32,000 nucleotides of DNA from Idiomarina loihiensis L2TR (GTDB lineage: Bacteria > Pseudomonadota > Gammaproteobacteria > Enterobacterales > Alteromonadaceae). The position numbers and the translations under genes were made by a program. Below are positions 1 to 30,476 of the stretch, in pieces. The DNA lies in NCBI RefSeq assembly GCF_000008465.1, contig NC_006512.1, positions 1,620,001-1,652,000 of the forward strand, written 5' to 3'. Numbering within the stretch: the first letter of the stretch is position 1; each line of letters begins with the position of its first letter. Below the pieces are notes generated by a model. That model did not search any database. It was not told the DNA's origin and worked only from the letters and a program-made list of their open reading frames with translations.

Positions 1-231
1 TCGATGAGTGCCGGCCCGGGGAAAGTAGAAGTTCAGGGTGTTACTGAAATTGCTGGTGAGAAAGTCTTTGCCTTACGCTTTATCCAGGGGCGCAATCCGG
101 ACTGGGTACAACGTCCCTTCTTCGCTAAATATGATCCGGATGCCACCTGGCTGCATCACTTAAAACCAGCTTTTGGTGAGGAAAAATTCTTTTTCGAAGA
201 TGAGTATTCAAAAATGTCGGCGATGGATTAA
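1..231 (+). CDS. 3' end of a CDS of unknown function, open to the left window edge
   Basis: The frame is open from base 1 to TAA at 229-231. I recognise no motif in the 75 C-terminal residues. Its stop overlaps the kdsB stop on the other strand. Confidence 0.5.
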
Positions 232-15321: not shown

Positions 15322-15801
15322 ATGGAAAAGTACGAAGAACTGCTACTGGCCTTAAGAAAAGTGATTCGCGCCATCGACTTATACTCTAAGCAGCTAAATA
15401 AGTATTCCGGATTAACCGCGCCTCAGTTATTAATTTTGCGTGAAATAAATGCGGCGAACGGCATAACCGCCAGTAAAGTGGCACAAAATATCAATCTAAG
15501 CCCGGCAACCGTATCTAATGTCATCGAACGCCTTGAACATCGGCAGTTAATCCACAGACACCGTAGTGAACAAGACAAACGTAGGGTTTCTCTGTACCTC
15601 ACTGAGCAGGGCCTGACTCTACTGGAAAAAGCGCCACAGCCGTTGCAGGAAGATTTCATCGAAAAGTTTCAGGCACTGGATGAATGGGAGCAGTCGTTGC
15701 TGCTCTCGTCAATGCAAAGAATTGCCAATATGATGGATGCGGAACGTCTCGACGCCGCGCCCGTACTTGAAGTTGGAAGCTACCATAAACTGGACCACTA
15801 A
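15322..15801 (+). CDS. MarR-family transcriptional regulator
   Basis: 159 aa with a winged-helix region LTAPQLLILREI...ITASKVAQNINLSPATVSNVIERLEHRQLIHRHRSEQDKRRV. Confidence 0.85.
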   Translation: MEKYEELLLALRKVIRAIDLYSKQLNKYSGLTAPQLLILREINAANGITASKVAQNINLSPATVSNVIERLEHRQLIHRHRSEQDKRRVSLYLTEQGLTLLEKAPQPLQEDFIEKFQALDEWEQSLLLSSMQRIANMMDAERLDAAPVLEVGSYHKLDH

Positions 15802-15802
15802 C

Positions 15803-17572
15803 ATGCACAAACGACTACTTAGCTTATTACCCGCTCTGCTTTTATCGGGAGCTGCAATTGCAGAAACCTGTGGAAGTGACAAAGGGATTATTCCTATTTC
15901 ACAGGTGCAGGGAGACAGTGAACAGTCTCCAAAGGTTGGTAAGCAAGTAACCGTGCGCGGTATTGTTACCGCAGGCTGGCAGCCATCTGAACAGCTTGGC
16001 GGCTTTTTTCTTCACAGTTTGCCCGAAGACATGGATGGGAACCCTGCCACTTCAGAGGGGTTATTTATAGCAACCAATAAGCAGCATTCACAAATTAATA
16101 ACGGTGAATGGGTAAGAGTTACAGGACAAGTTGAAGAGCGTTCGGAATTAACCTCGTTAATAGAGGTATCCAATATAACAACCTGTGGTGAAGCAAAAAC
16201 ACTTCCTGTGACAACTGAGCTGGAGCTTCCGGTTGAATCACTTGACGCGCTTGAAGCCTTAGAAGGTATGCCTGTCATTTTATCCGCTACTAAAGGCGAG
16301 AGCCTGACGGTTTCCGGCAATTACAATTACCCTCGCTACGGTTTTTTCGATATTTCCGCAGGGCGCTTATGGACGCCAACTCAAGTCGTTATGCCGGGAA
16401 AAGACGCGAAACTTCAGGCACAGGAAAACGAATTGAACCGGTTGCAGGTTGATGACAACAGCAATGTTATCGAGCCACGTCCACTGCCATTTTCAGAGCT
16501 TCAACATGGTGAACAAGGTAGTCTACGTTCGGGTGCAACCCTGAAAAGCTTCTCCGGTATTATCAGCCAGTTCAATAACCGTTACCGAATTCAGCCAACC
16601 GACGACTTAGAACTAGAAACACCGTCGGTGCAACCGCAACTGGCAGAGAAGTCAGATAAGGCCTTGCGCATCGCCAGTTTTAATGTGCTGAACTTCTTTA
16701 ATGGAAACGGCGTCGGACAAGGTTTCCCGACTCCCAGAGGAGCTGACACGCCTGAGCAAATGCAACGACAACAGAAAAAAATTGTTGCCGCACTAACAGC
16801 TATTGATGCTGATGTTATTGGTTTAATGGAAATTGAGAATGACGGATTTGGTGAGCGCAGCGCAATAATGCAACTGGTCAAGGCACTGGAGAAAGCATCA
16901 GGGAAAGATTATGCAATAGCTGAGCCGCGTGCAGAAAAAATCGGAACAGACCAAATTACTGTCGGTATTATTTATCAGCCGCAGCGCGTAAAACCAAATT
17001 CTCACGCGATATTTACACGTCAGGGGCCTTTCTCCTGGGGAAGCCGGCCTCCTCTTGCACAAAGCTTTATCGACGCAAACACAGGTAAAGAATTCAGTGT
17101 TGTGGTAAACCACTTCAAGTCGAAAGGCAGTTGTCCGGAAGACTCCGAAAGCCCAAATAGTAATCAAAATGATGGGCAGGCGTGCTGGAACGACTTAAGA
17201 CTTCAGTCCTCGCGAGAGTTAATTCAATGGATTCAGAGCGAGTCTTTAGCAAACTCGGTATTACTAGGTGATTTTAACGCTTACTACCAAGAAGACCCGG
17301 TGCGTTATTTTGCTGACAATGGTTTTTATAACCCTTCAGGCGCAAAAGACTATTCTTACGTTTATGACAGTCAGGCCGGGGCTTTGGATCACGTTTTTGT
17401 TACAGACTCACTTAAAGACGCGATTCAGGAGGTGTATCACCTACCCTTTAATGCTGACGAACCCCAGCTATATGATTACCGCGATGAGGCGTACTTTGCA
17501 GAAGGCCCATTTCGCTCTTCTGACCATGATCCATTAGTACTGGACTTAGTTTTTTCTGGCTCTGGCATGTAG
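15803..17572 (+). CDS. exported ExeM/NucH-type extracellular nuclease (endonuclease/exonuclease/phosphatase superfamily)
   Basis: The start is taken at ATG 15803 (MHKRLLSLLPALLLSGAAIA signal peptide), 1 nt after the MarR stop. The C-terminal EEP domain carries RIASFNVLNFF, IGLMEIENDG, NHFKSKG, GDFN and SSDHDP. Confidence 0.85.
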   Translation: MHKRLLSLLPALLLSGAAIAETCGSDKGIIPISQVQGDSEQSPKVGKQVTVRGIVTAGWQPSEQLGGFFLHSLPEDMDGNPATSEGLFIATNKQHSQINNGEWVRVTGQVEERSELTSLIEVSNITTCGEAKTLPVTTELELPVESLDALEALEGMPVILSATKGESLTVSGNYNYPRYGFFDISAGRLWTPTQVVMPGKDAKLQAQENELNRLQVDDNSNVIEPRPLPFSELQHGEQGSLRSGATLKSFSGIISQFNNRYRIQPTDDLELETPSVQPQLAEKSDKALRIASFNVLNFFNGNGVGQGFPTPRGADTPEQMQRQQKKIVAALTAIDADVIGLMEIENDGFGERSAIMQLVKALEKASGKDYAIAEPRAEKIGTDQITVGIIYQPQRVKPNSHAIFTRQGPFSWGSRPPLAQSFIDANTGKEFSVVVNHFKSKGSCPEDSESPNSNQNDGQACWNDLRLQSSRELIQWIQSESLANSVLLGDFNAYYQEDPVRYFADNGFYNPSGAKDYSYVYDSQAGALDHVFVTDSLKDAIQEVYHLPFNADEPQLYDYRDEAYFAEGPFRSSDHDPLVLDLVFSGSGM

Positions 17573-18525
17573 GCATTATCGGTTCCGAAGTGAACCTCGA
17601 ACTCAACACCAAGCAACCACTGACCGTTACGCTGTTCTGTCATAAGATTGCGAGGCCAGTGGTACCCAACCCAGGTTTCCACAAAAAACCAGTCCCGTAA
17701 GTATCGTTGACGATTAAGAAAGCGCAATCCATAGTCCTGAACAGGCACTTCATGGTCAGTATTGCCCTCTATCCAGGTTTCTGTCGCCCAGGCTTTTTCC
17801 TGCCCATACAAATGATATAAACGCGCAGTACTGTTCCAGCGAATACCGTCTGTTTCTTCTGCAAAGGTGCCTTTAGAAGCCCACCTTAATAGCCATGTAT
17901 CAGTTAATGTGGCTTCATAATCCACTCTCTGTGCAACACCAAAGCCGTCACTGTCGCGCCAGAAAGCTGAAGACTGCATACGAACTTGCTGATTGCCTGA
18001 AAAAACAAAACCTGTCATGTAGCGGGCTCTGGCATAGGTATCAAACCGTAAACCACCACGGATACCTATACTGTAGGACACTCGATACGCTTCGTTAATT
18101 TCGGGATCAAAACCTAAACCCACTAGCCACTCTTCGTCTGACTGAGGAGAACGAATAACTGAAGGGCGACCGGTAGAATCATCATCCAGAAACTCATTTT
18201 CATCAACCCGGCCAATGAAAGCTGAAACGTTTTCTTTTAGCTTAGGTAAGGTTACCCGGGCTCTAAAACGCGACTTAACTTCAAAGCCATCGTACTGATC
18301 CCATTGCGGCGCAACCGAAAGCCGCCCATATGAACGTTCATATTGATTAATGCTTTCATTTCCGAACAAGCCGTCAAACCAACGCGCGGTTACATCTACC
18401 GAGGTTCCAAGCCCGCTGCGGAAACTGTCCAGCCACATACCATCTTCTTCATCAGCTTGTTGAGCTTCTGTAGCTGACTGGCAACCAAGACTAAAAATAA
18501 AAGCTAACCAAGTAATCTTTTTCAT
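17476..18525 (-). CDS. putative outer-membrane beta-barrel protein or lipoprotein, family not recognised
   Basis: The start is taken at ATG 18525 ([17 protein letters not shown] signal). The body has alternating aromatic/polar strand-like segments. A VEFEVHF beta-signal-like motif sits 36 codons before the stop. Confidence 0.55.
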
Positions 18526-18570
18526 ATTGAACGGTCTATAACTAAACACCACCTTTGGTTGGAGAACACT

Positions 18571-19683
18571 ATGTCGTTTCGCCTTATAATTGTTATTGTC
18601 GGTTTGTTAGTATCTTGTTTCAGCATGGCACAGAATAGCGAGCCAACAAAGCAAAAAAATGAAAAAGTCGCGACTTTTGCCGGCGGCTGTTTCTGGTGTG
18701 TTGAAGAAGCCTTTGAACAAATGCCCGGAGTCCGGGAAGTCATTTCTGGCTTCAGCGGAGGTGACGAAGTCAACCCGACATACGAAGAGGTTTCAGCAGG
18801 TAAGACCGGGCATACGGAAGCAGCTCAGATATACTACAACCCCGATGTCGTAAGCTACGCGGCATTACTTCAGAAGTTATGGCGTATCAGTGACCCGACA
18901 GACAACGACGGACAGTTTGTTGACCGCGGTAAACAGTATCGCCCCGCTGTTTTTTATCATAATGATGAACAAAAGCGCATAGCTATGGAGTCGCGCGAAT
19001 GGCTGGATAAAAATGGCCCCTTCCCTGACCCGGTGGTTATTGAAATAACACCCTTTAAGAGCTTCTACAAAGCTGAAGAATACCACCAGGACTATTACGA
19101 CAAGAACCCCGTTCGCTACCGCATTTATACCTACAACTCGGGGCGTTATGACTTCGTTGAAAAGCATTGGGGCGATACCTCGGACGTTGACTATCAGCAA
19201 TTTACGAATGACAACCCGACAGGTAAAGCTGAGCAGCAAAGTTTCGTTAAACCTAGTGACAGCGAACTGAAAAAACGCCTAACGGATATTCAGTATGCAG
19301 TGACTCAGGAAGACCAAACGGAACCCGCCTTCGATAACCGCTACTGGGACAATGAGCGCAAGGGTATTTATGTAGATGTAGTAAGTGGTGAGCCACTTTT
19401 CTCTTCAGCAGATAAATACGAATCGGGTACCGGTTGGCCAAGTTTTACTAAGCCCATAAGCCCAGACGCGGTAGTAGAAAAAGATGACAGCAGCTGGTTC
19501 TATACCCGGACTGAAATTCGCAGCCGCAAAGCAGACTCTCATGTAGGCCACGTTTTTAATGATGGTCCACCGCCTACTGGTTTAAGATACTGCATGAATT
19601 CAGCGGCACTGCGCTTTATTCCTTTAGAAAAAATGGAGGAAGAAGGGTACGGTGACTACATTCCTGCAGTCACCGATGATTAG
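18571..19683 (+). CDS. msrAB: exported bifunctional methionine sulfoxide reductase MsrA-MsrB fusion
   Basis: The start is taken at ATG 18571, with GGAG 6 nt upstream. The signal peptide is [20 protein letters not shown]. The MsrA motif is GGCFWCVEE; the MsrB motifs are GWPSF, HVGHVF and [11 protein letters not shown]. Confidence 0.92.
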
Positions 19684-19697
19684 TTAAGCGGTAATAA

Positions 19698-21713
19698 TTA
19701 GGCTGTCCAGCCCAGCTCAGTAGCACGCTGCTGAGCCTGCGCGGGCACATCAGTAGCTACAAAATGATGGTGCAGCACCTGAACACCAAGCATATGGTTG
19801 ATGACGGCATCAAGCTGCACACGCTCTTCATTCGGAACATTCTCATCCTGATGCCGTTCAAAGGTCCGCACCACTTCGTCGTAGTCAAGTAAACCGGCTG
19901 ACTTAACTGCCTCAGCATTCAGGAATTGCTCCGCCAGCTTCTCAACAGCTTTCCACTTCTCCGGGTCGGTGTGCGCCGGCGGTGCCATAAAAGCGAACTT
20001 CTCACGTTTATACAGCGTTTCCGGCAACAAGCCTTTCATGGCTTCACGCAACACATATTTTTCTTTATTGCCTTTAATGCGTAGGTGCGGCGGCACAGTG
20101 AAAGCGTATTCCGCCAAGTGATGATCTAAAAATGCCGGGCGCGCCTCCATTGAATTAGCCATATCCACCCGGTCGCCGCCCCAGGTCAGAATTTGCCCCT
20201 CAAGCATGGTTTTAATCCAGACATACTGAGCTCTGTCCAGCGGATGCCGACCATCCAGCATGTCTTTATCAAGCGTGTTGGCAATAGCCAGGCTGGGGTC
20301 ATAGCCTTCAACCTGTTTTCGCTTGTTCTCCGACATAAGCGGCAGCGCAACCGATGAGCAGGAAAGCCACGGCTGCACACAACTTGGAGTAAAACCCATT
20401 TTCTGGTTAAAAGCTTCGCTGACAAACTCTTCGCGAGCCAACATCGCGCCTTTAAAGAGTTTATTGTTTTTCTCCAACAGCTCCTGCCACTCAACCCGCT
20501 CTACTTCCGGTAAATGGTCGAGTCCATGCAGGAACATGTCCTTTCTAAAAGCCGGGTAACCGGCAAAGAGTTCATCAGAACCCTCTCCGGTCATCACGAC
20601 TTTATAGCCGGCTTCATGCACCTCTTTACTCATCAGGTACTTGGCTACGCCCAGCGTGTTATATATGGTTCGTTCTGTATGCCACAAAGTTTTTACGAAA
20701 TGGTCGTAAAGGTCATCGGCTTTAAGCCGCATAATGTGGTGATCAGCCTTAGTAGCTGCAGCCATTTCTTCTGCAATAGGTGTTTCATCATAGTCAGCAG
20801 AATCGAAACCTATGGTAAAAGCTTTTACCGAGGTTTGGGTTGAGGCGGACGCAAGTCCCAGAATGGCACATGAATCAATGCCACCGGACAAATAGCAACC
20901 TACAGGTACGTCAGCTGTCATTCGGTGCTGAACGGCTTCCAGTAGCTTAGCGCGGACCCCTTCAATATAAGATTCCTCGTCAACATCCGCTCCCGGATAG
21001 CTCTCTTCCGGCGGAAAATCGACATCCCAGTATTTATGTTCCGTTGCAACCACTTTGCCATTTTTACGCTGCAACTTAACCACATAACCCGGCTGAACCT
21101 GATTAATCCCTTCAAAAGCCGTAGAGCCCGGCACCATCACTTGAATCAGTTGGTGGTATAAGCCCTCTGCCGAAAACTCCCGCTTAACGTCCGGGTGAGC
21201 AAACAACACTTTCAGCTCAGAGCCAAACACCACGCCATGCTCCGTTTCCGTCCAGTATAAAGGCTTAATTCCAAATCTGTCGCGCACCAGGTACAGGCTT
21301 TCATCTTTTGCATCGAATAAGCCGAAAGCGAACTCTCCACGAAGCTCCTTTAGGGTGTCCTCCAGTCCGTAACGCTCAAACAGGTGAAGAACAATTTCAG
21401 AGTCGCTTTTACTGTTAAAGCGTGCGCCACGAGCGGTTAAATCCGCACGTATGCGTTTGAAATCGTAAAACTCGCCGTTATGAGTCAGCATCAGTCGTTT
21501 ATCGGCTGATATAAAAGGTTGCCGACCTCGCTTTTCATCTAGGTCGATAATGGATAAACGGGCGTGACTAAATCCTACGCCGTAGTCTTGTTGTACTTCA
21601 TAACCAAACCCGTCGGGACCACGATGATGCATTATCGCAGCCATATTAACTAAGGTTTGGGGTTCAATCGCTCTTTCCGTTTGATGATGAAAAACGCCAG
21701 CAATTCCGCACAT
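19698..21713 (-). CDS. AsnB-family glutamine-hydrolysing amidotransferase, long 671-aa paralog
   Basis: N-terminal nucleophile MCGIAGVF, then HRGPD, NGEFY and SDSE in the Ntn glutaminase domain. The PP-loop is YLSGGIDSCAILGLA. It carries about 100 extra C-terminal residues relative to E. coli AsnB. GAGGAAAA lies upstream. Confidence 0.9.
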   Translation of the reverse strand: MCGIAGVFHHQTERAIEPQTLVNMAAIMHHRGPDGFGYEVQQDYGVGFSHARLSIIDLDEKRGRQPFISADKRLMLTHNGEFYDFKRIRADLTARGARFNSKSDSEIVLHLFERYGLEDTLKELRGEFAFGLFDAKDESLYLVRDRFGIKPLYWTETEHGVVFGSELKVLFAHPDVKREFSAEGLYHQLIQVMVPGSTAFEGINQVQPGYVVKLQRKNGKVVATEHKYWDVDFPPEESYPGADVDEESYIEGVRAKLLEAVQHRMTADVPVGCYLSGGIDSCAILGLASASTQTSVKAFTIGFDSADYDETPIAEEMAAATKADHHIMRLKADDLYDHFVKTLWHTERTIYNTLGVAKYLMSKEVHEAGYKVVMTGEGSDELFAGYPAFRKDMFLHGLDHLPEVERVEWQELLEKNNKLFKGAMLAREEFVSEAFNQKMGFTPSCVQPWLSCSSVALPLMSENKRKQVEGYDPSLAIANTLDKDMLDGRHPLDRAQYVWIKTMLEGQILTWGGDRVDMANSMEARPAFLDHHLAEYAFTVPPHLRIKGNKEKYVLREAMKGLLPETLYKREKFAFMAPPAHTDPEKWKAVEKLAEQFLNAEAVKSAGLLDYDEVVRTFERHQDENVPNEERVQLDAVINHMLGVQVLHHHFVATDVPAQAQQRATELGWTA

Positions 21714-21731
21714 TCTTTGCTTTTCCTCGTA

Positions 21732-22799
21732 TCAGACGACATCAATGACGCGTTCAGCTCGCTGTACCATACAGGTCAGCAGCGCCATACGTAAAAACAC
21801 CGCACCCCTTGCCTGGCTGAAATACCAGTTATGAGGCGTATGGTCGAGATCGGCGGATAATTCTTCACCGCGCGCTAAAGGGTGTAAAATAATCGCGCTG
21901 TCTTTTAGCGGAGACTGCGCCGTTAAGTGAAACTCACTGCCATAAGTACTAAAGGTATCACCTTCCCACGAAATCGCGTTGATATAAACCACGTCGAGCT
22001 CTGGTAGTACCTGCTCTAAATCCCGGGTCGTACGAATCTTTATTCCGGCTTGCTCAATCTGTTCTCGTTGCTCACTTCCAAACAGCTGAGTCGACGATTC
22101 CTCGTCATGAATAATGACAATTTCATCAATTGCTTTTGGAAACTTCACTAAACATTTAATAAAGCTGCGCACGGTACGCATTTTATTTGGCACACCAATA
22201 ATGCCAATTTTTATCGGCGCTTTATCGGCTTCGTCCGTCACTAAATCGGGACGCCATTTAAACAGTGCGTACATATCCGTAAGCGCCTGAGTCGGGTGTT
22301 CATCTGAACCATTACCCGCATTAATAATAGGAATGCGCAGCGAATCGATCATCTCTTCCAGTGAGGTTTCATTATTGTCCCTCAACACCACGCAGTCACC
22401 ATAGTTATTAAACATTTCAGCCACATCGGCTAAACGTTCACCTTTGGCTATGCCGGTAGTAGAACGGTCAGTAATTGACATAATATCGCCGCCCAGACGG
22501 TGCCAGGCGCTTTCAAATGACAGACGAGTACGAGTACTTGGCTCGTAAAACGCGCTGATTAAAATTTTGCCCTGTAATGAGGTACTAAAACGACGAGGGT
22601 TAGCCTCGTACTTTGCAGCAAGCCGGAACAGTTGCAGCATCCCCAGCTGCGAAAACTGATCAGCAGACACAACATGCTGATTCGACAAGTTCAGCAAGTA
22701 ATCACCATCTTCCTGAATTGCTTTTAATAACGCCTTTGGATGAGCATCGCCGCAAACATCGGGGCGCTCTCGTTCAAAGGAGACATCCTTTATAGTCAT
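21732..22799 (-). CDS. aspartate/ornithine carbamoyltransferase-family enzyme with a non-canonical second-substrate pocket
   Basis: 355 aa. The carbamoyl-phosphate motifs EPSTRTRLSFE, KGE, VVLRD, NAGNGSDEHPTQ, RTV and HPLAR are present. The ATCase segment TRVQKER is replaced by NAISWEG. It has an N-terminal extension of about 45 aa, and no pyrI is adjacent. Confidence 0.85.
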   Translation of the reverse strand: MTIKDVSFERERPDVCGDAHPKALLKAIQEDGDYLLNLSNQHVVSADQFSQLGMLQLFRLAAKYEANPRRFSTSLQGKILISAFYEPSTRTRLSFESAWHRLGGDIMSITDRSTTGIAKGERLADVAEMFNNYGDCVVLRDNNETSLEEMIDSLRIPIINAGNGSDEHPTQALTDMYALFKWRPDLVTDEADKAPIKIGIIGVPNKMRTVRSFIKCLVKFPKAIDEIVIIHDEESSTQLFGSEQREQIEQAGIKIRTTRDLEQVLPELDVVYINAISWEGDTFSTYGSEFHLTAQSPLKDSAIILHPLARGEELSADLDHTPHNWYFSQARGAVFLRMALLTCMVQRAERVIDVV

Positions 22800-22912
22800 A
22801 CAATTACCATATGGTTTTAGAAATAAAATCTTTAATAAAAAGCCCGAGTAACAAAACCGGAGCTAAGCAAGTCATTATTAGCGCCAGAGAAATTAACCAC
22901 TCAAAAGCCAGT

Positions 22913-24349
22913 TCACTGATTAGCATTTGACTGCTCCTTCTCATTTAGTGTGTCCCAGTCAAACTTGTCGCTACTGCGAAAAATGCCTACTAGACATATT
23001 AGACCGGAAACTGCACATGACACTAAAGCGGCGACATAGAAGCCGACAACAAAATAACTCAGCATACCAAATGCCGTACCGAACCCCATAGCGCACGCCG
23101 CGTATGTTCCCGTCAGCCGACGATGATACAGCCCCAGTACAATTGGCCAGATGGTGCTGGCAACAAAAGCTCCGGCAAAATTCAATAGAGCACCTAAGGT
23201 TGCAACGCGCGGCAGGCACAATAACCAGGTAACGACTCCTAAGCCTAGAATACAACTGCGATTAAAGCGCATTAATGTTTTGTCGCTGGCTTTAGGTTTC
23301 AGTTTTTTATGGAAAATATCCTGCGTGACTAAATCTGAAGTAGCTGCGAGTAACGAGTCCAGGCTGGACGCCAACGCAGAAAAAATAACAATAAAAACAA
23401 TAATGGCCCCGGCTTTACCGAGTACAGCCGCGGCAACGGTAGGACCAATCATATCGGGGCTTGGTGGGAAAATTCCCAGCTGAGGCGCTGCTAACGCAAT
23501 AAACCCGGTAACAATAGGAATGGGCAGCCATAATAAGCCACCAGTTAAGTAAGCCTTGTAAGCCACATTCTTTTTAAAAGACAGCGCCCGTGACCACCAG
23601 ACATTGGAATGAAAGATTTCCCCAAGGCCGAAGAAGATATTGTTAAACAGAAACATGACGGCAGCCGGAAACAGCATGTCCAAAAGCTGCGGATGCTCAC
23701 TTGTCAGGTTGCTGTGGATGCTCTCCAGGCCAACATTATCAATTATCCAGTACGCGATAAAACTGACACCGACAATGATGATTAAAGCCTGAATAAAGTC
23801 GGTAGCAATAACCGCCCGCATTCCGCCAAAAAGTGTATAGCCGACACAAATTACCAGTATGGTGGTCATGCCAATGTGATAATCGAGCCCACTGAGTGAC
23901 TCAAGCAAAATACCACCAGCCATACCCAGACTAATTAACCAGCCAAAAGCATAAACCACAGAAATGATGATAAAGACGAGCCAGGCCAGATTGCCATAAC
24001 GCAAACGCACAAAGTCGCCCGATGTATAACCGTTAGGAAGCAGTTCCTTAATGCGTTTAGCCATAGGTGCAAACAGCACTAAGCCCAGAGCAGCAAAGGA
24101 ATACCCTACCATGCCCCAAATGCCGAATTGATAGGTTAACTGGGGAGCAACCAGCGTGGTGTTACTGGTAACCCAGGTGGCCATAGCCGTTGCCGCTGCA
24201 AACGCAAAACCAACATTCCGCCCTGCCAGAGCAAAGTCCTCGTGGCTGCGGTTCTTCCGCCCCAGCCAATAACCAAAGGCTACCCAGAACACCCCAAACA
24301 GGACGATAATCGTGATGCCGGTACTCGTATCCAGTGCGAATTCAGTCAT
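22913..24349 (-). CDS. sodium:solute symporter (SSS) family transporter
   Basis: 478 aa with about 13 hydrophobic segments. The N-terminal region ...DFALAGRNVGFAFAAATAMATWVTSNT is typical of the SSS family. Substrate is unknown. Confidence 0.88.
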   Translation of the reverse strand: MTEFALDTSTGITIIVLFGVFWVAFGYWLGRKNRSHEDFALAGRNVGFAFAAATAMATWVTSNTTLVAPQLTYQFGIWGMVGYSFAALGLVLFAPMAKRIKELLPNGYTSGDFVRLRYGNLAWLVFIIISVVYAFGWLISLGMAGGILLESLSGLDYHIGMTTILVICVGYTLFGGMRAVIATDFIQALIIIVGVSFIAYWIIDNVGLESIHSNLTSEHPQLLDMLFPAAVMFLFNNIFFGLGEIFHSNVWWSRALSFKKNVAYKAYLTGGLLWLPIPIVTGFIALAAPQLGIFPPSPDMIGPTVAAAVLGKAGAIIVFIVIFSALASSLDSLLAATSDLVTQDIFHKKLKPKASDKTLMRFNRSCILGLGVVTWLLCLPRVATLGALLNFAGAFVASTIWPIVLGLYHRRLTGTYAACAMGFGTAFGMLSYFVVGFYVAALVSCAVSGLICLVGIFRSSDKFDWDTLNEKEQSNANQ

Positions 24350-24830
24350 GGCGCTCTTGTCTGGAGTGGATCCATTGCCGATGAAGCAATAATAAGGTTG
24401 CTACCAAAGTAATGAAAATAACCAGGCCGACGAAGAATAAAGTCAGAGATTGCCAGAGCGGATAGTGCTCCACCGTTATCTCAATAGTATTGCTGGTATA
24501 AATTTGGTTATCAGGACCTTCGGCTCTAGCACGCAAATAATAAGTTCCATTGCTAAAACCGGTAAGTGAAATATCCTGGAAGTCACCTAGTGTAGGAAAC
24601 TGACGAGTACTCTTGGCAAACTCTGAATTGCTGGCAACTTCAATAGTAACTCTGTTAAGCTCGTCAAAATTCAGAGCGCTAACAGAAACAGTGAAGTAAC
24701 CTTCTTTTACAACGGAGTCCGGCCCGCTCAGTTTTAACGAGCTCGCATGCGCAGTTGTTGGCAACATTACCAACAAACATAAAGCAAACAAAATATAGCA
24801 ATAGTTAAAGCCGTTTTTCTGCGTTGTCAT
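24342..24830 (-). CDS. single-pass membrane protein with an exported beta-sandwich (Ig/FN3-like) domain, coupled to the symporter
   Basis: 162 aa. A signal peptide (...LPTTAHASS) precedes about 100 aa of strand-like sequence (YFTVSVSA, VTIEVAS, GTYYLRARA, IEITVE), a C-terminal TM helix and a basic tail. An 8-nt ATGACTGA overlap joins it to the symporter start. Confidence 0.7.
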   Translation of the reverse strand: MTTQKNGFNYCYILFALCLLVMLPTTAHASSLKLSGPDSVVKEGYFTVSVSALNFDELNRVTIEVASNSEFAKSTRQFPTLGDFQDISLTGFSNGTYYLRARAEGPDNQIYTSNTIEITVEHYPLWQSLTLFFVGLVIFITLVATLLLLHRQWIHSRQERHD

Positions 24831-24853: not shown

Positions 24854-24896
24854 AGTTGAAATCTCAGGCTAGCAGCAGAATTTTTTAATTTCAACT
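24854..24896. promoter_or_regulatory. 9-bp perfect inverted repeat in the divergent control region
   Basis: AGTTGAAAT (24854-24862) and ATTTCAACT (24888-24896) are separated by 25 nt. They lie in the 145-bp region between the two divergent operons. Confidence 0.3.
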
Positions 24897-24975
24897 GTTT
24901 AAAATAGTCATCTGTTTACTGTTATTGCTCGTAATCAGTTCAACATATTATTTACGTTTAGTGGTCAGTCATTCA

Positions 24976-25347
24976 ATGCAAAAGTATTTATGCAGTCTCG
25001 GTTCAAACCTTGAGCCTGAAACACATTTTCCTCAGGCACAAGTGGCCCTTAAAGCTTTATCCGACGATATACGCTTTTCACGAAACATACCGACTTCACC
25101 AGTCGACATGGATACGAATAACGATTTTTTGAACGCCTTATTTATTATTCGCACGCCTATGTCTGCGAATGAATTAAAGCAAAAGTTTAATGCTATCGAA
25201 GAGGCTATGGGCCGCGACCGCTCAGACCCACAAAGAAGCTTTAAAGATCGCACCATAGATATTGATATCCTGGGACGGCTTGAAGAGAAACCTCCGGTAC
25301 CGGAATATTTAACCTCTTTATTACCAGATTTAGGACTCACCTCATGA
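24976..25347 (+). CDS. short HPPK (FolK)-like protein
   Basis: 123 aa counted from ATG 24976. It aligns by eye to E. coli HPPK: GSNL, ALKAL, FLNA, GRDR and DRTIDIDIL (equivalent to PRTLDLDIM). It ends about 25-30 residues short, and VPHY is replaced by VPEY. Confidence 0.65.
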   Translation: MQKYLCSLGSNLEPETHFPQAQVALKALSDDIRFSRNIPTSPVDMDTNNDFLNALFIIRTPMSANELKQKFNAIEEAMGRDRSDPQRSFKDRTIDIDILGRLEEKPPVPEYLTSLLPDLGLTS

Positions 25348-26051
25348 GAAAAACAGCAGTTATTACAGGCGCCGGACGACGTTTTGGTTTTGAACTGGCC
25401 AAAGCCTTGCTGACTGAAGGCTACCAGTTATTTGCTCACTACAATAGCTCGCGTGACGGTATTGACGAGCTGGAAGCACTTGGCGCTCAGGGCGTACAAG
25501 CAGATTTCACCAACATAGACAGTATTCAGGCCATGGTGCGTACTATTAGCAGCGCTACGGACTCTGTCGATCTATTGGTTAACAACGCTTCCTGTTTTTT
25601 CGACAACGAAACCGTTGATAACGACAACAACGCGTTAGCTGCGGTATTCCAGGTACACGGAATGGCACCCTATCTGCTTATAAGCGGCTTGCAACGGCAA
25701 TTAAGCCATTCCGGGAATGGACTGGTTATTAATATTACGGACATCTACGCTGACCGCCCGTCTACAGACTATATTGCTTATTGCGCAGCGAAAGCCGGGC
25801 TCGCCAACATGACCCAGGCCTTTGCTAAAAGTTTAGCGCCATCAGTAAGAGTCAACGCCATTCAGCCAGGCCCTATTCTATTTTTACCAGAGCACGATAA
25901 AGAACATCGTATGCAGGTTCTGGATGAGACACCATTGCGGGTTGAAGGGGGTTTAGAGCCAATGATAGAAACCGTTCGCTTTTTACGCGACAACCCGTTT
26001 ATTACGGGCGAGTCCATTAAAGTCGACGGCGGTCGCGGCTTAATGATATAA
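25344..26051 (+). CDS. folM: FolM/PTR1-type short-chain pteridine (dihydromonapterin/dihydrofolate) reductase
   Basis: 235 aa SDR. The cofactor motif is ITGAGRRFG, which is TGxxxRxG rather than TGxxxGxG. It also has NNAS and the catalytic YCAAK. An ATGA overlap joins it to the HPPK-like gene. Confidence 0.8.
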   Translation: MRKTAVITGAGRRFGFELAKALLTEGYQLFAHYNSSRDGIDELEALGAQGVQADFTNIDSIQAMVRTISSATDSVDLLVNNASCFFDNETVDNDNNALAAVFQVHGMAPYLLISGLQRQLSHSGNGLVINITDIYADRPSTDYIAYCAAKAGLANMTQAFAKSLAPSVRVNAIQPGPILFLPEHDKEHRMQVLDETPLRVEGGLEPMIETVRFLRDNPFITGESIKVDGGRGLMI

Positions 26052-26089: not shown

Positions 26090-26130
26090 AAAAATTTTAG
26101 CGATCGGTTGACCGATCCGGCAGAGACTTC

Positions 26131-26167
26131 AAAATCCGTAGTTAGGTTTTCTAACTACGGATTTTTT
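26131..26167 (+). terminator. perfect 15-bp stem-loop plus T-run immediately upstream of the transposase ATG
   Basis: AAAATCCGTAGTTAG, loop GTTTT, CTAACTACGGATTTT, then TT and the ATG at 26168. Confidence 0.55.
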
Positions 26168-27493
26168 ATGTTTCTGAGTCAAGCACTGGACCAACTGCAG
26201 GAGTTTACGCCGGATGATTTTAGTAAACTACCGGATCTGCTGGAGCCTGAGTTAATCGAACAATGCCTTGAAGACGCGGGCGTTACAACGGTACGCAAAC
26301 GCCGTTTGCCAATGGACTTTATGGTCTGGGCGGTCGTAGGAATGGCATTATTTCGGGAAATGCCGATGCGTCAGCTCGTTTCACACCTTGATTTAATGTT
26401 GCCCGGCAAAAGACCTTACGTTGCGCCGAGTGCCGTAGTTCAGGCTCGTCAGCGTTTGGGGGCTAATGTTATGAAGCGTATGTTTGAGCTCACTAATGAG
26501 CTGTGGTTCGATAAACTACCGCTTTCTCACTGGAATAATCTATCGGTTCTGGCTGTCGACGGCACCGTCTGGCGTACACCGGACACACCGGAGAATGATG
26601 CTTCCTATGGGCGAACGGCTAACCAGCGGGCTGAATCCGACTATCCTCAAATTCGGATGGTGAATCAAATGGAAGTAAGCAGCCATTTAGTCACCTCGAC
26701 GGAGTTCGGCAGTATTGCAGAGGTTAGTGAAGTAGACCTGGCAGCCCGGCTGATTGAACAGACGCCGGACCACTCACTGACGCTGTTCGATAAAGGGTTT
26801 TATGCGCTGGGTTTACTGGATCAATGGCATCGTGCCGGTGAGGAGCGCCATTGGCTTATTCCCCTCAGAAAAGGCGCACAATACTCTGTCAAGAAGTCTT
26901 TTAGCGACACGGACAAATTGGTAGAAATTAGGCTCTCACCACAAGCTAAGAAGAAGTGGGATAATGCACCGGACACTGTTCAGGCGCGTTTAGTGTGTAA
27001 GAAAATAGCTAAAAAAGAGGTTGCGATATTAACCTCAATGACAGACACGATGCGTTATCCTGAAGCCGATATCGTTGACTTATATGCTCATCGCTGGGAA
27101 ATCGAGCAGGCTTACCGTGAAATGAAACAATATATGCTGAAGAGTGAGCTGACCCTGCGCAGCAAACGGCCTGACCTGGTTGAGCAGGAGTTGTGGGGCA
27201 TGCTGGTCGCTTATAACTTATTGCGGTATATGATGGCGCAAATGGCCTATAGCCTGAAGCATATTGAGCCGAATCAAATAAGTTTCAAACAAGCCTCTCA
27301 TTATCTGGTGGGGCAGTTACATATACTGGTACACATCTCACCCGGAAAAATACCCAAAGTCATGGAGCAAATGATGGAAATGGCCAGCGCATTCGTGCTG
27401 CCCGAAAGACGAGAGCGATATTACCCTCGTTCAATAAAAAGGCGGCCGCAACGTTATCCGATGCGACCGCCTTCTAAACCGACAGCCAGTTAG
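26168..27493 (+). CDS. IS4-family DDE transposase (InsG-like)
   Basis: 441 aa counted from ATG 26168 (MFLSQALD...). The DDE context is [18 protein letters not shown] and [15 protein letters not shown], which gives the Y(2)R(3)E(6)K signature. It closely resembles my recollection of E. coli IS4 InsG. Confidence 0.93.
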
Positions 27494-27548: not shown

Positions 27549-30218
<2,670 letters not shown>

Positions 30219-30476
30219 AGATTCTCTCCCATTCGCTTCCAAAGCGTCGTTGTGAACTAAACGGTCTCTTAAATATAGACAAACAGAACCGTTTCAGCCA
30301 TCAAATGTGTGCTTTGATGAAAACATAAATCAAAAGTTTGTGCCAATTAACTGCTGGTTAAGTACTCAGTTAAGCAACTATTTTTATTATAAATTGTGTT
30401 TATATTACATAGTCGGTAAAAAGTGTTTAAGATCAATTAGACATCAGTCTTAGTGAATAAAATAAGGATATAATGG

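Follow-up and report, generated by a model that had tools for sequence, protein, structure and literature searches.

A conserved five-gene module in Idiomarina loihiensis couples a pseudo-aspartate transcarbamylase and an AsnB-type amidotransferase to a DUR3-like symporter: a candidate cassette for making, importing and breaking a ureido-amide

The operon and its five genes

We analysed a window of 32,000 nucleotides from Idiomarina loihiensis L2TR (contig NC_006512.1, positions 1,620,001 to 1,652,000), in which five tightly packed minus-strand genes form the module described here; all coordinates are those of the window. In order of transcription they encode a 162-amino acid (aa) accessory membrane protein (24342..24830), a 478-aa SSS-family symporter that resembles the urea transporter DUR3 (22913..24349; Pfam SSF), a 40-aa single-helix membrane peptide (22804..22926), a 355-aa transcarbamylase related to aspartate transcarbamylase (ATCase; 21732..22799; OTCace_N and OTCace domains; gene ATC) and a 671-aa glutamine-hydrolysing AsnB-type amidotransferase (19698..21713; GATase_7 and Asn_synthase domains; gene ASN). 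The products of the four large open reading frames (ORFs) match AAV82364-AAV82367 exactly, and public annotations name aspartate carbamoyltransferase, asparagine synthase and Na+/proline symporter. A previous reading of this DNA from its letters alone (the sequence-only reading) had described four co-directional genes. All four ORFs are where it placed them, with an 8-nt overlap between the first two and an 18-nt gap before the amidotransferase gene, whose ATG has GAGGA 10 nt 5' of it, but the locus has a fifth gene (22926-22804) in what had been taken for a 113-nt gap between the symporter and ATC genes. A consensus scan revealed no internal terminators or promoters splitting the operon beyond the shuffled expectation.

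The fifth gene was recognised as an ORF with a Shine-Dalgarno sequence (GGAG, 7 nt 5' of the ATG) and by its conservation in related loci. It overlaps the end of the symporter gene by 14 nt and stops 4 nt before the ATC start codon. The peptide, MLISELAFEWLISLALIMTCLAPVLLLGLFIKDFISKTIW, is present in 83/83 related loci at a length of 38-40 aa, with an invariant proline in the middle of the helix, an aspartate just beyond it and (L/I)W at the C terminus. Gene callers report a 39-40-aa gene in Thiothrix, Pseudoalteromonas, Rhodomicrobium, Kordiimonas and a Spirochaetia metagenome-assembled genome (MAG), and the gene is seemingly unannotated in L2TR because the flanking genes have consecutive accessions. 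No known family in Pfam or NCBIfam is matched. A role as precursor of a ribosomally synthesised and post-translationally modified peptide was ruled out, given the hydrophobic helix, the invariant proline and the retention of the glutaminase cysteine by the amidotransferase. In Thiorhodospira sibirica (L087:7885-9080) the 40-aa gene and an ATC-like gene occur together and overlap, and the symporter, the gene for the 162-aa protein and the amidotransferase are all missing within 8 kb; this pairing raises the question of whether the peptide is a partner of the enzyme rather than of the transporter.

The 162-aa gene always directly precedes the symporter gene in related loci. Its product has a signal peptide, a beta-rich periplasmic domain and a C-terminal transmembrane (TM) helix, and conserves the motifs EGYF and LSGxxNGxYxxR, followed by a histidine and the TM helix; it has no match in Pfam or NCBIfam. 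The protein had been described as an immunoglobulin (Ig)-like single-pass protein, of which the single TM helix stands. A single-sequence AlphaFold2 model is consistent in topology at low confidence (pLDDT 65), and a Foldseek search with it gave nothing significant, with fibronectin type III (FN3) and Ig sandwiches heading the list; an Ig/FN3-like fold is plausible but weakly supported. The transporter had also been called a two-component symporter, and that description appears not to hold, as there seem to be two small partners, the 162-aa protein and the 40-aa peptide. SSS transporters with small accessory subunits include SGLT2-MAP17, ActP-YjcH and the VC_2705 family with DUF4212. As in those systems a single-helix partner is encoded here beside the transporter, with a weak TIGR03648 match, but the module has two partners rather than one and the association is suggested by gene order.

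Among PDB entries the symporter matches the DUR3 urea-H+ symporter best by far, at 123 bits, with the second-best family at 38. It shares the LeuT fold family with Arabidopsis DUR3 (9j7c/9j7d) and conserves W93, T98, Y117, W338, P342 and P474 of that protein. The urea site of DUR3 comprises W93, W95, T98, Y117, Q124, N305, Y315, W338 and Y461 (PMC11840088). Equivalents of four of these nine are kept (W59, T64, Y83 and W274). The other five are replaced: W95 by T61, Q124 by G89, N305 by G241 and Y461 by L389, each time with a smaller residue, and Y315 by W251. The proposed proton residues H222, D312 and E402 are Q187, S248 and L333. Fifteen mapped positions, the fourteen above and D331, which aligns to DUR3 S400, vary little or not at all among 86 distinct orthologues, and the invariant smaller pocket residues fit a larger ureido ligand. 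The symporter is also about 230 residues shorter than DUR3, and genes for two small membrane proteins always accompany its own. Cotransport of urea and H+ is probably not its function; a core that recognises ureido groups, set in an enlarged pocket and lacking the DUR3 proton path, would suit a transporter of substituted ureas, probably coupled to Na+ rather than to H+.

In the transcarbamylase the carbamoyl-phosphate site of E. coli ATCase is intact, in the motifs EPSTRTR (STRTR), VLRD (R105) and EHPTQA (HPTQ), and the binders of the aspartate alpha-carboxylate, R167 and K84, are retained. At the other end of the substrate R229 is replaced by A, Q231 by S and HPLP by HPLA, the window motif being NAISWEG. 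In ATCase R229 and Q231 belong to the RxQxER motif of the 240s loop and bind the aspartate beta-carboxylate (PMC4581275). All members of the family, the most distant included, have N(A/S)I(A/S)W, with A and A/S in place of these two residues. The protein falls below every NCBIfam cutoff for ATCase, ornithine and putrescine transcarbamylases and YgeW (for PyrB, TIGR00670 gives 195.8 < 236.95 and NF002032 194.3 < 263) and is about 35-38% identical to canonical PyrB representatives. In a set of 1.8 billion representatives all full-length members share one cluster at 50% identity, and identity to the closest proteins outside it is only 42-45%; within the family identity is 55-69% across Gamma- and Alphaproteobacteria, a Spirochaetia MAG and a genome that is probably of Bacteroidota. 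Neither pyrI nor pyrC occurs in the operon or in any of 93 loci, and with no pyrI adjoining and the aspartate pocket altered (R229A, Q231S, HPLA) the earlier statement that this is not a pyrimidine locus is upheld. The expected substrate of the enzyme is an alpha-amino acid whose alpha-carboxylate is free and whose side chain is not acidic. The invariant W278, N274 and R211 are candidates to stand in for R229 and Q231. A separate set of ATCase-like proteins (P0190, P0192-P0206 and P0214; about 355-361 aa, 35-42% identical to the window protein and with a comparable N-terminal extension) has degenerate STRTR, HPTQ and HPLP motifs, and these are probably catalytically dead pseudoenzymes.

The window protein belongs to the marine subgroup of pseudo-ATCases of Barba et al. 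(2013), which has HPLA, AIA/AIS/SIA and intact STRT/HPTQ; its own motifs (HPLA, AIS) are those of one pseudo-ATCase row in Table 1 of that paper (PMC4016543). Marine pseudo-ATCases were found there between a Na+ symporter and an Asn-family gene, usually beside a HyuC-like N-carbamoyl-amino-acid amidohydrolase, Rhodopirellula baltica RB13301 and Kangiella koreensis being examples, and their function was left open (BMC Syst Biol 7:99; PMC4016543). The window locus has the same synteny of Na+ symporter and Asn-family enzyme, whereas it and the Idiomarinaceae loci are without an M20/HyuC-like homologue. In the literature searched we found no follow-up on the 'pseudo-ATCase' and no mention of RB13301 beyond the 2013 paper, and the marine subgroup is not mentioned in the searched passages of a 2015 transcarbamylase review. 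A characterised relative is ureidoglycine transcarbamylase (UGTCase; Rubrobacter xylanophilus Rxyl_2847), which branches as a sister where the ATCase II tree is rooted, likewise has an intact carbamoyl-phosphate site and has lost RxQ; by this likeness the substrate would be a neutral ureido- or amide-like analogue of aspartate. UGTCase differs in having H[ST]LP instead of HPLA, acts in purine catabolism with allantoinase and carbamate kinase, has no AsnB-type partner and has been shown to act phosphorolytically on allantoate.

The amidotransferase has all the class II glutaminase motifs (N-terminal MCGIAG with the catalytic cysteine, RLSIID and HNGEFY) and the PP-loop LSGGIDS. Since both the cysteine and the PP-loop are retained it is likely to be a true glutamine-dependent amidating enzyme, which should hydrolyse glutamine and amidate an adenylated carboxylate. 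It scores above the TIGR01536 cutoff (452; cutoff 267) but below the AsnB equivalog (NF006949, 282 < 499) and below the cutoff for the PEP-CTERM amidotransferase, and its best PDB match is the TsnB9 hydroxyamidotransferase (7ylz). The aspartate-site residues T322, T323 and R325 of E. coli AsnB (literature numbering) align to N, T and G, tentatively, as the region is gapped. The suggestion that this is something other than a housekeeping asnB is borne out by the AsnB score and by a gene order that is invariant across phyla.

The closest mechanistic precedent is the synthesis of N-acetylglutaminylglutamine amide (NAGGN), which uses AsnO, Ngg and a co-encoded hydrolase. There too an N-blocked glutamine derivative is neutralised by glutamine-dependent terminal amidation by an AsnB-family enzyme, a hydrolase is encoded alongside and the role is osmoprotection. 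The sequence-only reading had drawn this parallel, and it stands at the level of logic but not of family, as the window enzyme is not a member of the AsnO family (TIGR03104, 305 < 570). The N-block would here be a carbamoyl group placed by a transcarbamylase, in contrast to an acetyl group placed by a GNAT/ATP-grasp enzyme, and the operon includes a dedicated transporter. No GNAT or ATP-grasp partner is present in any of the related loci.

Distribution of the module and its form in Ectothiorhodospira

The module had been thought an orphan, but it is found in hundreds of mostly marine bacteria. When one genome per species was searched for the family peptides LSFESAWH and GGDIMSIT, at least 394 species genomes were found to carry the transcarbamylase, which is a lower bound. 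The five-gene order is identical in 83/83 loci first examined, from Idiomarinaceae, Kangiella, Pleionea, Aliikangiella, Pseudoalteromonas, Ketobacter, Pseudomaricurvus, Thiothrix and MAGs, and the full set of five recurs among Alphaproteobacteria (a Rhodomicrobium MAG and Kordiimonas), in the Spirochaetia MAG and in the probable Bacteroidota genome. The proposed check on co-occurrence of the four families gives a single gene order wherever the transporter is present, in all 88 such loci examined. Between taxonomic orders the three large proteins keep 60-82% identity, and the two small proteins evolve much faster. ASN directly follows ATC in 92/93 loci, with or without the transporter, and this pair is the invariant core of the module.

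Two hydrolase genes are recurrent neighbours. An M20 amidase of the hydantoinase/carbamoylase family lies directly beside the module in 30/83 loci, in every possible orientation, and these include nearly all complete loci from outside Idiomarinaceae; the 32-kb window itself contains no M20 homologue (best tblastn E 0.46). The M20 proteins score 516-534 against the cutoff of 399 for NF006771 (the 'allantoate amidohydrolase' subfamily), and the next-best match is ErtE, an N-carbamoyl-L-glutamate amidohydrolase (348-394 bits). In some lineages only there is also an isochorismatase-type amidase, nearest to BiuH and RutB. By their families, the carbamoylase and the amidase would perform the reverse of the two predicted synthetic reactions, decarbamoylation and deamidation.

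A search seeded with a divergent relative, which sampled the family broadly across taxa, returned Ectothiorhodospira lacustris, E. magna, several Thioalkalivibrio, Thiohalobacter and Thiorhodospira sibirica, and the same 90% clusters hold proteins of E. mobilis, E. shaposhnikovii and Ectothiorhodospira sp. PHS-1. Window and Ectothiorhodospira proteins are 60% (ATC) and about 66% (ASN) identical and share every family motif. The sequence-only reading had pointed to Ectothiorhodospira genomes as a place to look, and the ATC-ASN pair is indeed present in E. mobilis, E. lacustris, E. magna and E. shaposhnikovii. In E. mobilis, E. lacustris, E. magna and Thioalkalivibrio nitratireducens the pair closes an array of MarR, M20, isochorismatase-family amidase, ATC and ASN, in which the transporter, 162-aa and mini genes are all absent. 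The array sits between a divergent sucrose synthase gene and a fructokinase gene; sucrose synthase is divergently upstream in four loci, PfkB is nearby in four (the type-B loci), MscS is directly downstream in two (E. lacustris and L093) and a BCCT transporter is nearby in one (Thioalkalivibrio). The neighbourhoods in Ectothiorhodospiraceae are therefore osmotic ones, of sucrose metabolism, MscS and BCCT. Both forms are united on L093, a 995-kb metagenomic contig, in the order sucrose synthase, MarR, Ig-like, M20, amidase, SSF, mini, ATC, ASN and MscS; the Spirochaetia MAG has the order M20, amidase, P-II-like, Ig-like, SSF, mini, ATC and ASN.

The link to Ectothiorhodospira matters because of one solute. 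According to the Roberts 2005 review, E. marismortui, for which E. mobilis is another name, accumulates carbamoyl-glutamine amide (CGA), and NCBI taxonomy treats E. marismortui as a synonym of E. mobilis. Three E. mobilis assemblies carry ATC (P0495, P0496 and P0498), and L091 is the full MarR-M20-Iso-ATC-ASN array, so the cluster is present in the CGA-producing species, in assemblies that are not confirmed to be the original CGA-producing strain. The structure of CGA, a compound of formula C6H12N4O3 with [M+H]+ at 189.098, has been known since 1991. It had been stated that no biosynthetic genes are assigned to it and we likewise found none in the literature searched, which yielded no paper on the biosynthesis of carbamoyl-glutamine or carbamoyl-asparagine and no solute analysis of Idiomarina.

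Two types of candidate regulator recur beside the module. The window has a MarR-family gene at 15322..15801 on the plus strand (Pfam MarR), whose product is 69% identical to the MarR protein near the Pseudoalteromonas module; orthologues lie about 0-5.5 kb from the module in 32/83 loci of many genera, and also in Kordiimonas, and the arrays of Ectothiorhodospira, Thioalkalivibrio and L093 each begin with a gene for a more divergent MarR protein. In this window the link is weak, because the gene sits 3.9 kb from the module. Divergent P-II-like genes lie directly 5' of the Ig-like and symporter genes in two phyla (L090:5543-5875 and L092:5681-5992). Their products score 58-65 bits, far under the GlnB/GlnK cutoffs, and their position suggests control of the transporter by nitrogen status.

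A proposed ureido-amide pathway and its rivals

The account we favour, tentatively and at slightly less than an even chance, is that the module makes a neutral N-carbamoyl amino-acid amide, takes it up again and breaks it down. The ATCase-like enzyme would use carbamoyl phosphate to carbamoylate an amino acid at its alpha-amino group, the alpha-carboxylate being free and the side chain not acidic (glutamine is suggested), after which the AsnB-type enzyme would adenylate the remaining carboxylate and amidate it with glutamine-derived ammonia to leave an uncharged product. The DUR3-derived symporter, with its 162-aa and 40-aa partners, would take the ureido compound back up by recapture or scavenging, probably with Na+ coupling, and where they are present the M20 carbamoylase and the isochorismatase-type amidase would reverse both steps, with MarR as regulator. 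The role would be osmoprotection and possibly a nitrogen reserve. Carbamoylation of an amine and amidation of a carboxylate to give an N-carbamoyl amino-acid amide is what the sequence-only reading had proposed; the Ectothiorhodospira pair lends it further support, whereas the product, the direction and the response to salt are still what we infer. The pair is kept without the transporter in Ectothiorhodospira and Thioalkalivibrio, which points to substrates made within the cell and so to biosynthesis. CGA stands out as a candidate, given that its producer carries the genes and that the M20 protein is nearest to an N-carbamoyl-glutamate hydrolase; as the specific product it is possible but doubtful, and the ATC-ASN pair would be the first testable candidate for CGA synthesis genes.

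Several observations weigh against this account. In the literature covered here E. marismortui is the sole CGA producer named, whereas at least 394 species have the module, among them Thiothrix nivea and the Rhodomicrobium MAG, which are not obvious halophiles. Idiomarinaceae loci have no M20 gene within 7 kb. In L093 and L092 the hydrolase, transporter and synthase genes are co-directional with overlapping stops and starts, so making and breaking would be co-expressed, and co-transcribed makers and breakers require either post-translational switching or a linear pathway of protection, amidation and deprotection. The mapping of residues onto DUR3 is one pairwise HMMER alignment. Transporter and enzymes are strictly linked in 88 loci, a pattern seen more often in uptake-and-convert pathways, and the P-II-like genes beside the transporter in two phyla hint at nitrogen scavenging. 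Finally, a marine Synechococcus gene annotated as DUR3 is more expressed in low-nitrogen waters (PMC13505874); should it be the same transporter, nitrogen scavenging may come before osmoprotection.

These last three observations suit the strongest rival, which we consider unlikely: that the module takes up and catabolises an external ureide such as allantoate, with the symporter as importer, the ATCase-like enzyme working phosphorolytically to yield carbamoyl phosphate and the M20 enzyme removing the second ureido group. UGTCase, which converts allantoate and phosphate to ureidoglycine and carbamoyl phosphate, is the characterised sister subgroup of the pseudo-ATCases, the M20 proteins exceed the cutoff of a subfamily named for allantoate amidohydrolase, and the transporter retains ureido-binding residues. 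An amidotransferase that consumes ATP and glutamine would nevertheless be purposeless in such a pathway, and it is the most constant partner. HPLA stands in place of the UGTCase motif H[ST]LP, there is no allantoinase or carbamate kinase nearby, and Idiomarinaceae are without a local M20 gene. The sequence-only reading had itself allowed for catabolism; the transporter-less enzyme pair of Ectothiorhodospiraceae weakens that alternative, which we keep as a rival.

An improbable but coherent alternative makes one linear pathway of all the enzymes: a transient N-carbamoyl group would protect the amine during AsnB-type amidation, and M20 deprotection would then release a free amino-acid amide or a related product. 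M20 enzymes such as ArgE and DapE deprotect elsewhere, and acetyl is the N-protecting group in arginine synthesis. Such a pathway would avoid the problem of a futile cycle and would accommodate the loci in which hydrolase and synthase genes are co-directional and overlapping or tight (L093, L092, Aliikangiella, L054, L076 and L083). It is harder to reconcile with Thiothrix nivea and all Idiomarinaceae, where no M20 gene is near the module, or with Kangiella, Ketobacter and Kordiimonas, where the M20 gene is divergent or convergent and so separately transcribed, and a transporter pocket that retains ureido recognition is unexplained if the end product has no ureido group.

Much less probable is guanidino chemistry, in which, by analogy with argininosuccinate synthetase, the AsnB-type enzyme would adenylate the ureido oxygen and add ammonia to give an N-amidino (guanidino) amino acid. 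The synthetase domain of AsnB and argininosuccinate synthetase both belong to the PP-loop ATP pyrophosphatases, and the substrate-binding arginine of AsnB is not conserved here, but the associated hydrolases are of carbamoylase and amidase types rather than guanidino hydrolases and, to our knowledge, all characterised AsnB-family members adenylate carboxylates. That the genes are housekeeping paralogues, an ordinary pyrB and asnB lying by chance beside a proline- or urea-type symporter, is scarcely credible: the public annotations and the TIGR01536 score agree with it, but RxQ is lost and HPLP changed in every member, all ATCase equivalog cutoffs are missed, the whole family is one 50% cluster at about 35-38% identity to canonical PyrB, the aspartate-binding arginine of AsnB has no aligned counterpart, the five-gene order is invariant across phyla, and authentic ATCases coexist with pseudo-ATCases in the genomes of Barba et al. 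(PMC4016543).

The transporter is the nearest bacterial relative of DUR3, with an altered site and the proton residues missing. If a ureido-amide is indeed made, imported and broken by the module, automatic labels such as 'urea transporter' or 'Na+/proline symporter', with the ecological inferences drawn from them, may be wrong for the family. CGA would likewise gain a specific two-gene candidate that is present in the producing species, and the 'pseudo-ATCase' clade of 2013 (at least 394 species in several phyla) a substrate class and a physiological role. A still wider picture, which as a whole we place on the unlikely side, is an economy of CGA or a close analogue among marine and soda-lake bacteria as osmolyte and nitrogen reserve, with ATC and ASN as makers, a three-subunit Na+-coupled DUR3 derivative as importer, M20 and amidase as degraders, and MarR or P-II in control. 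In that picture some bacterial genes annotated as 'DUR3 urea transporter', and marine metatranscriptome signals that build on such annotations, would reflect the ureido-amide and not urea.

The transcarbamylase clade and its basic synteny have been known since 2013 (PMC4016543). That paper called the Asn partner an 'asparaginase' and has no DUR3 affinity, small membrane genes, MarR or isochorismatase-type amidase, nor the transporter-less Ectothiorhodospira form or a link to CGA. New here are the gene for the 40-aa peptide, the likeness of the transporter to DUR3 together with its altered site, the partners (MarR, amidase and occasional P-II- and KamA-like genes), the transporter-less architecture of Ectothiorhodospira in its osmotic neighbourhood, and the testable CGA-type assignment.

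Upstream region and flanking genes

Upstream of the first gene a promoter-like phylogenetic footprint, TTGAAA-N17-TAGCCT with TGn before the -10 element, lies at 24866..24894 on the minus strand. It is kept in about 22 Idiomarina loci at 35-65 nt 5' of the first ATG and went unflagged by the consensus scanner. By its sequence this conserved block reads better as a -35/-10 promoter than as a riboswitch or leader. A riboswitch or leader upstream of the operon was rejected, as Rfam gave no credible match, one at E 0.48 being to an unrelated Listeria small RNA. No sigma-54 motif was seen by eye in the upstream region. In the I. loihiensis group the footprint is flanked by a perfect 9-nt inverted repeat, AGTTGAAAT...ATTTCAACT, which could be an operator.

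As had been stated, the module lies between the core genes msrAB (18559-19683) and acnA (27549-30242) with an insertion sequence (IS) nearby. The stop codons of msrAB and the amidotransferase gene are convergent and just 14 nt apart (19684-19697); no terminator-like hairpin was detected in this interval, and the two transcripts may therefore read into each other. The IS, with an IS4-family transposase at 26108-27493 on the plus strand, is inserted between acnA and a gene for a short-chain dehydrogenase/reductase (SDR). The earlier reading had noted that it adjoins the operon. In the 99%-identical relatives L080 and L081 acnA is directly followed by the SDR gene with a 52-nt gap, the order acnA-SDR-folK-like-module being complete without the IS, and the transposase has no match in any other related locus, so the insertion is strain-specific and unrelated to the operon. 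Horizontal transfer by way of the IS was ruled out, given its absence from these relatives, the unremarkable GC content and flanks that are syntenic across Idiomarinaceae.

The divergent neighbour of the module is an HPPK (folK)-like gene (24925-25347, plus strand; 140 aa, TTG start, marginally over the TIGR01498 cutoff), which overlaps the start of the FolM/pteridine-reductase-like SDR gene (25344-26051, plus strand), and this pair is conserved in that position in about 40 Idiomarina and Pseudidiomarina loci. On the other side of msrAB, a plus-strand ORF for a 611-aa secreted Exo_endo_phos nuclease-like protein (15737-17572) converges with a minus-strand ORF for a 358-aa signal-peptide protein with no Pfam match (17476-18552), the two overlapping by 97 nt; the first start of the nuclease-like ORF overlaps the end of the MarR gene (15737 versus 15801). 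An Exo_endo_phos gene is also found near the Ectothiorhodospira and Thioalkalivibrio clusters (L086, L088 and L091). Other neighbours in the related loci (CheW, MgtE, PcnB, GGDEF, Hsp20 and DUF454) are lineage-specific and were dismissed as parts of the module. At the left edge of the window (1-210, plus strand) stands the 3' end, some 70 codons, of a divergent KamA-family radical-SAM (aminomutase-like) gene, and KamA homologues with 54% mutual identity adjoin the module in Pleionea (L004:10191-11534) and in the probable Bacteroidota genome (L090:4159-5556), which may be a link to beta-amino acids or a coincidence.

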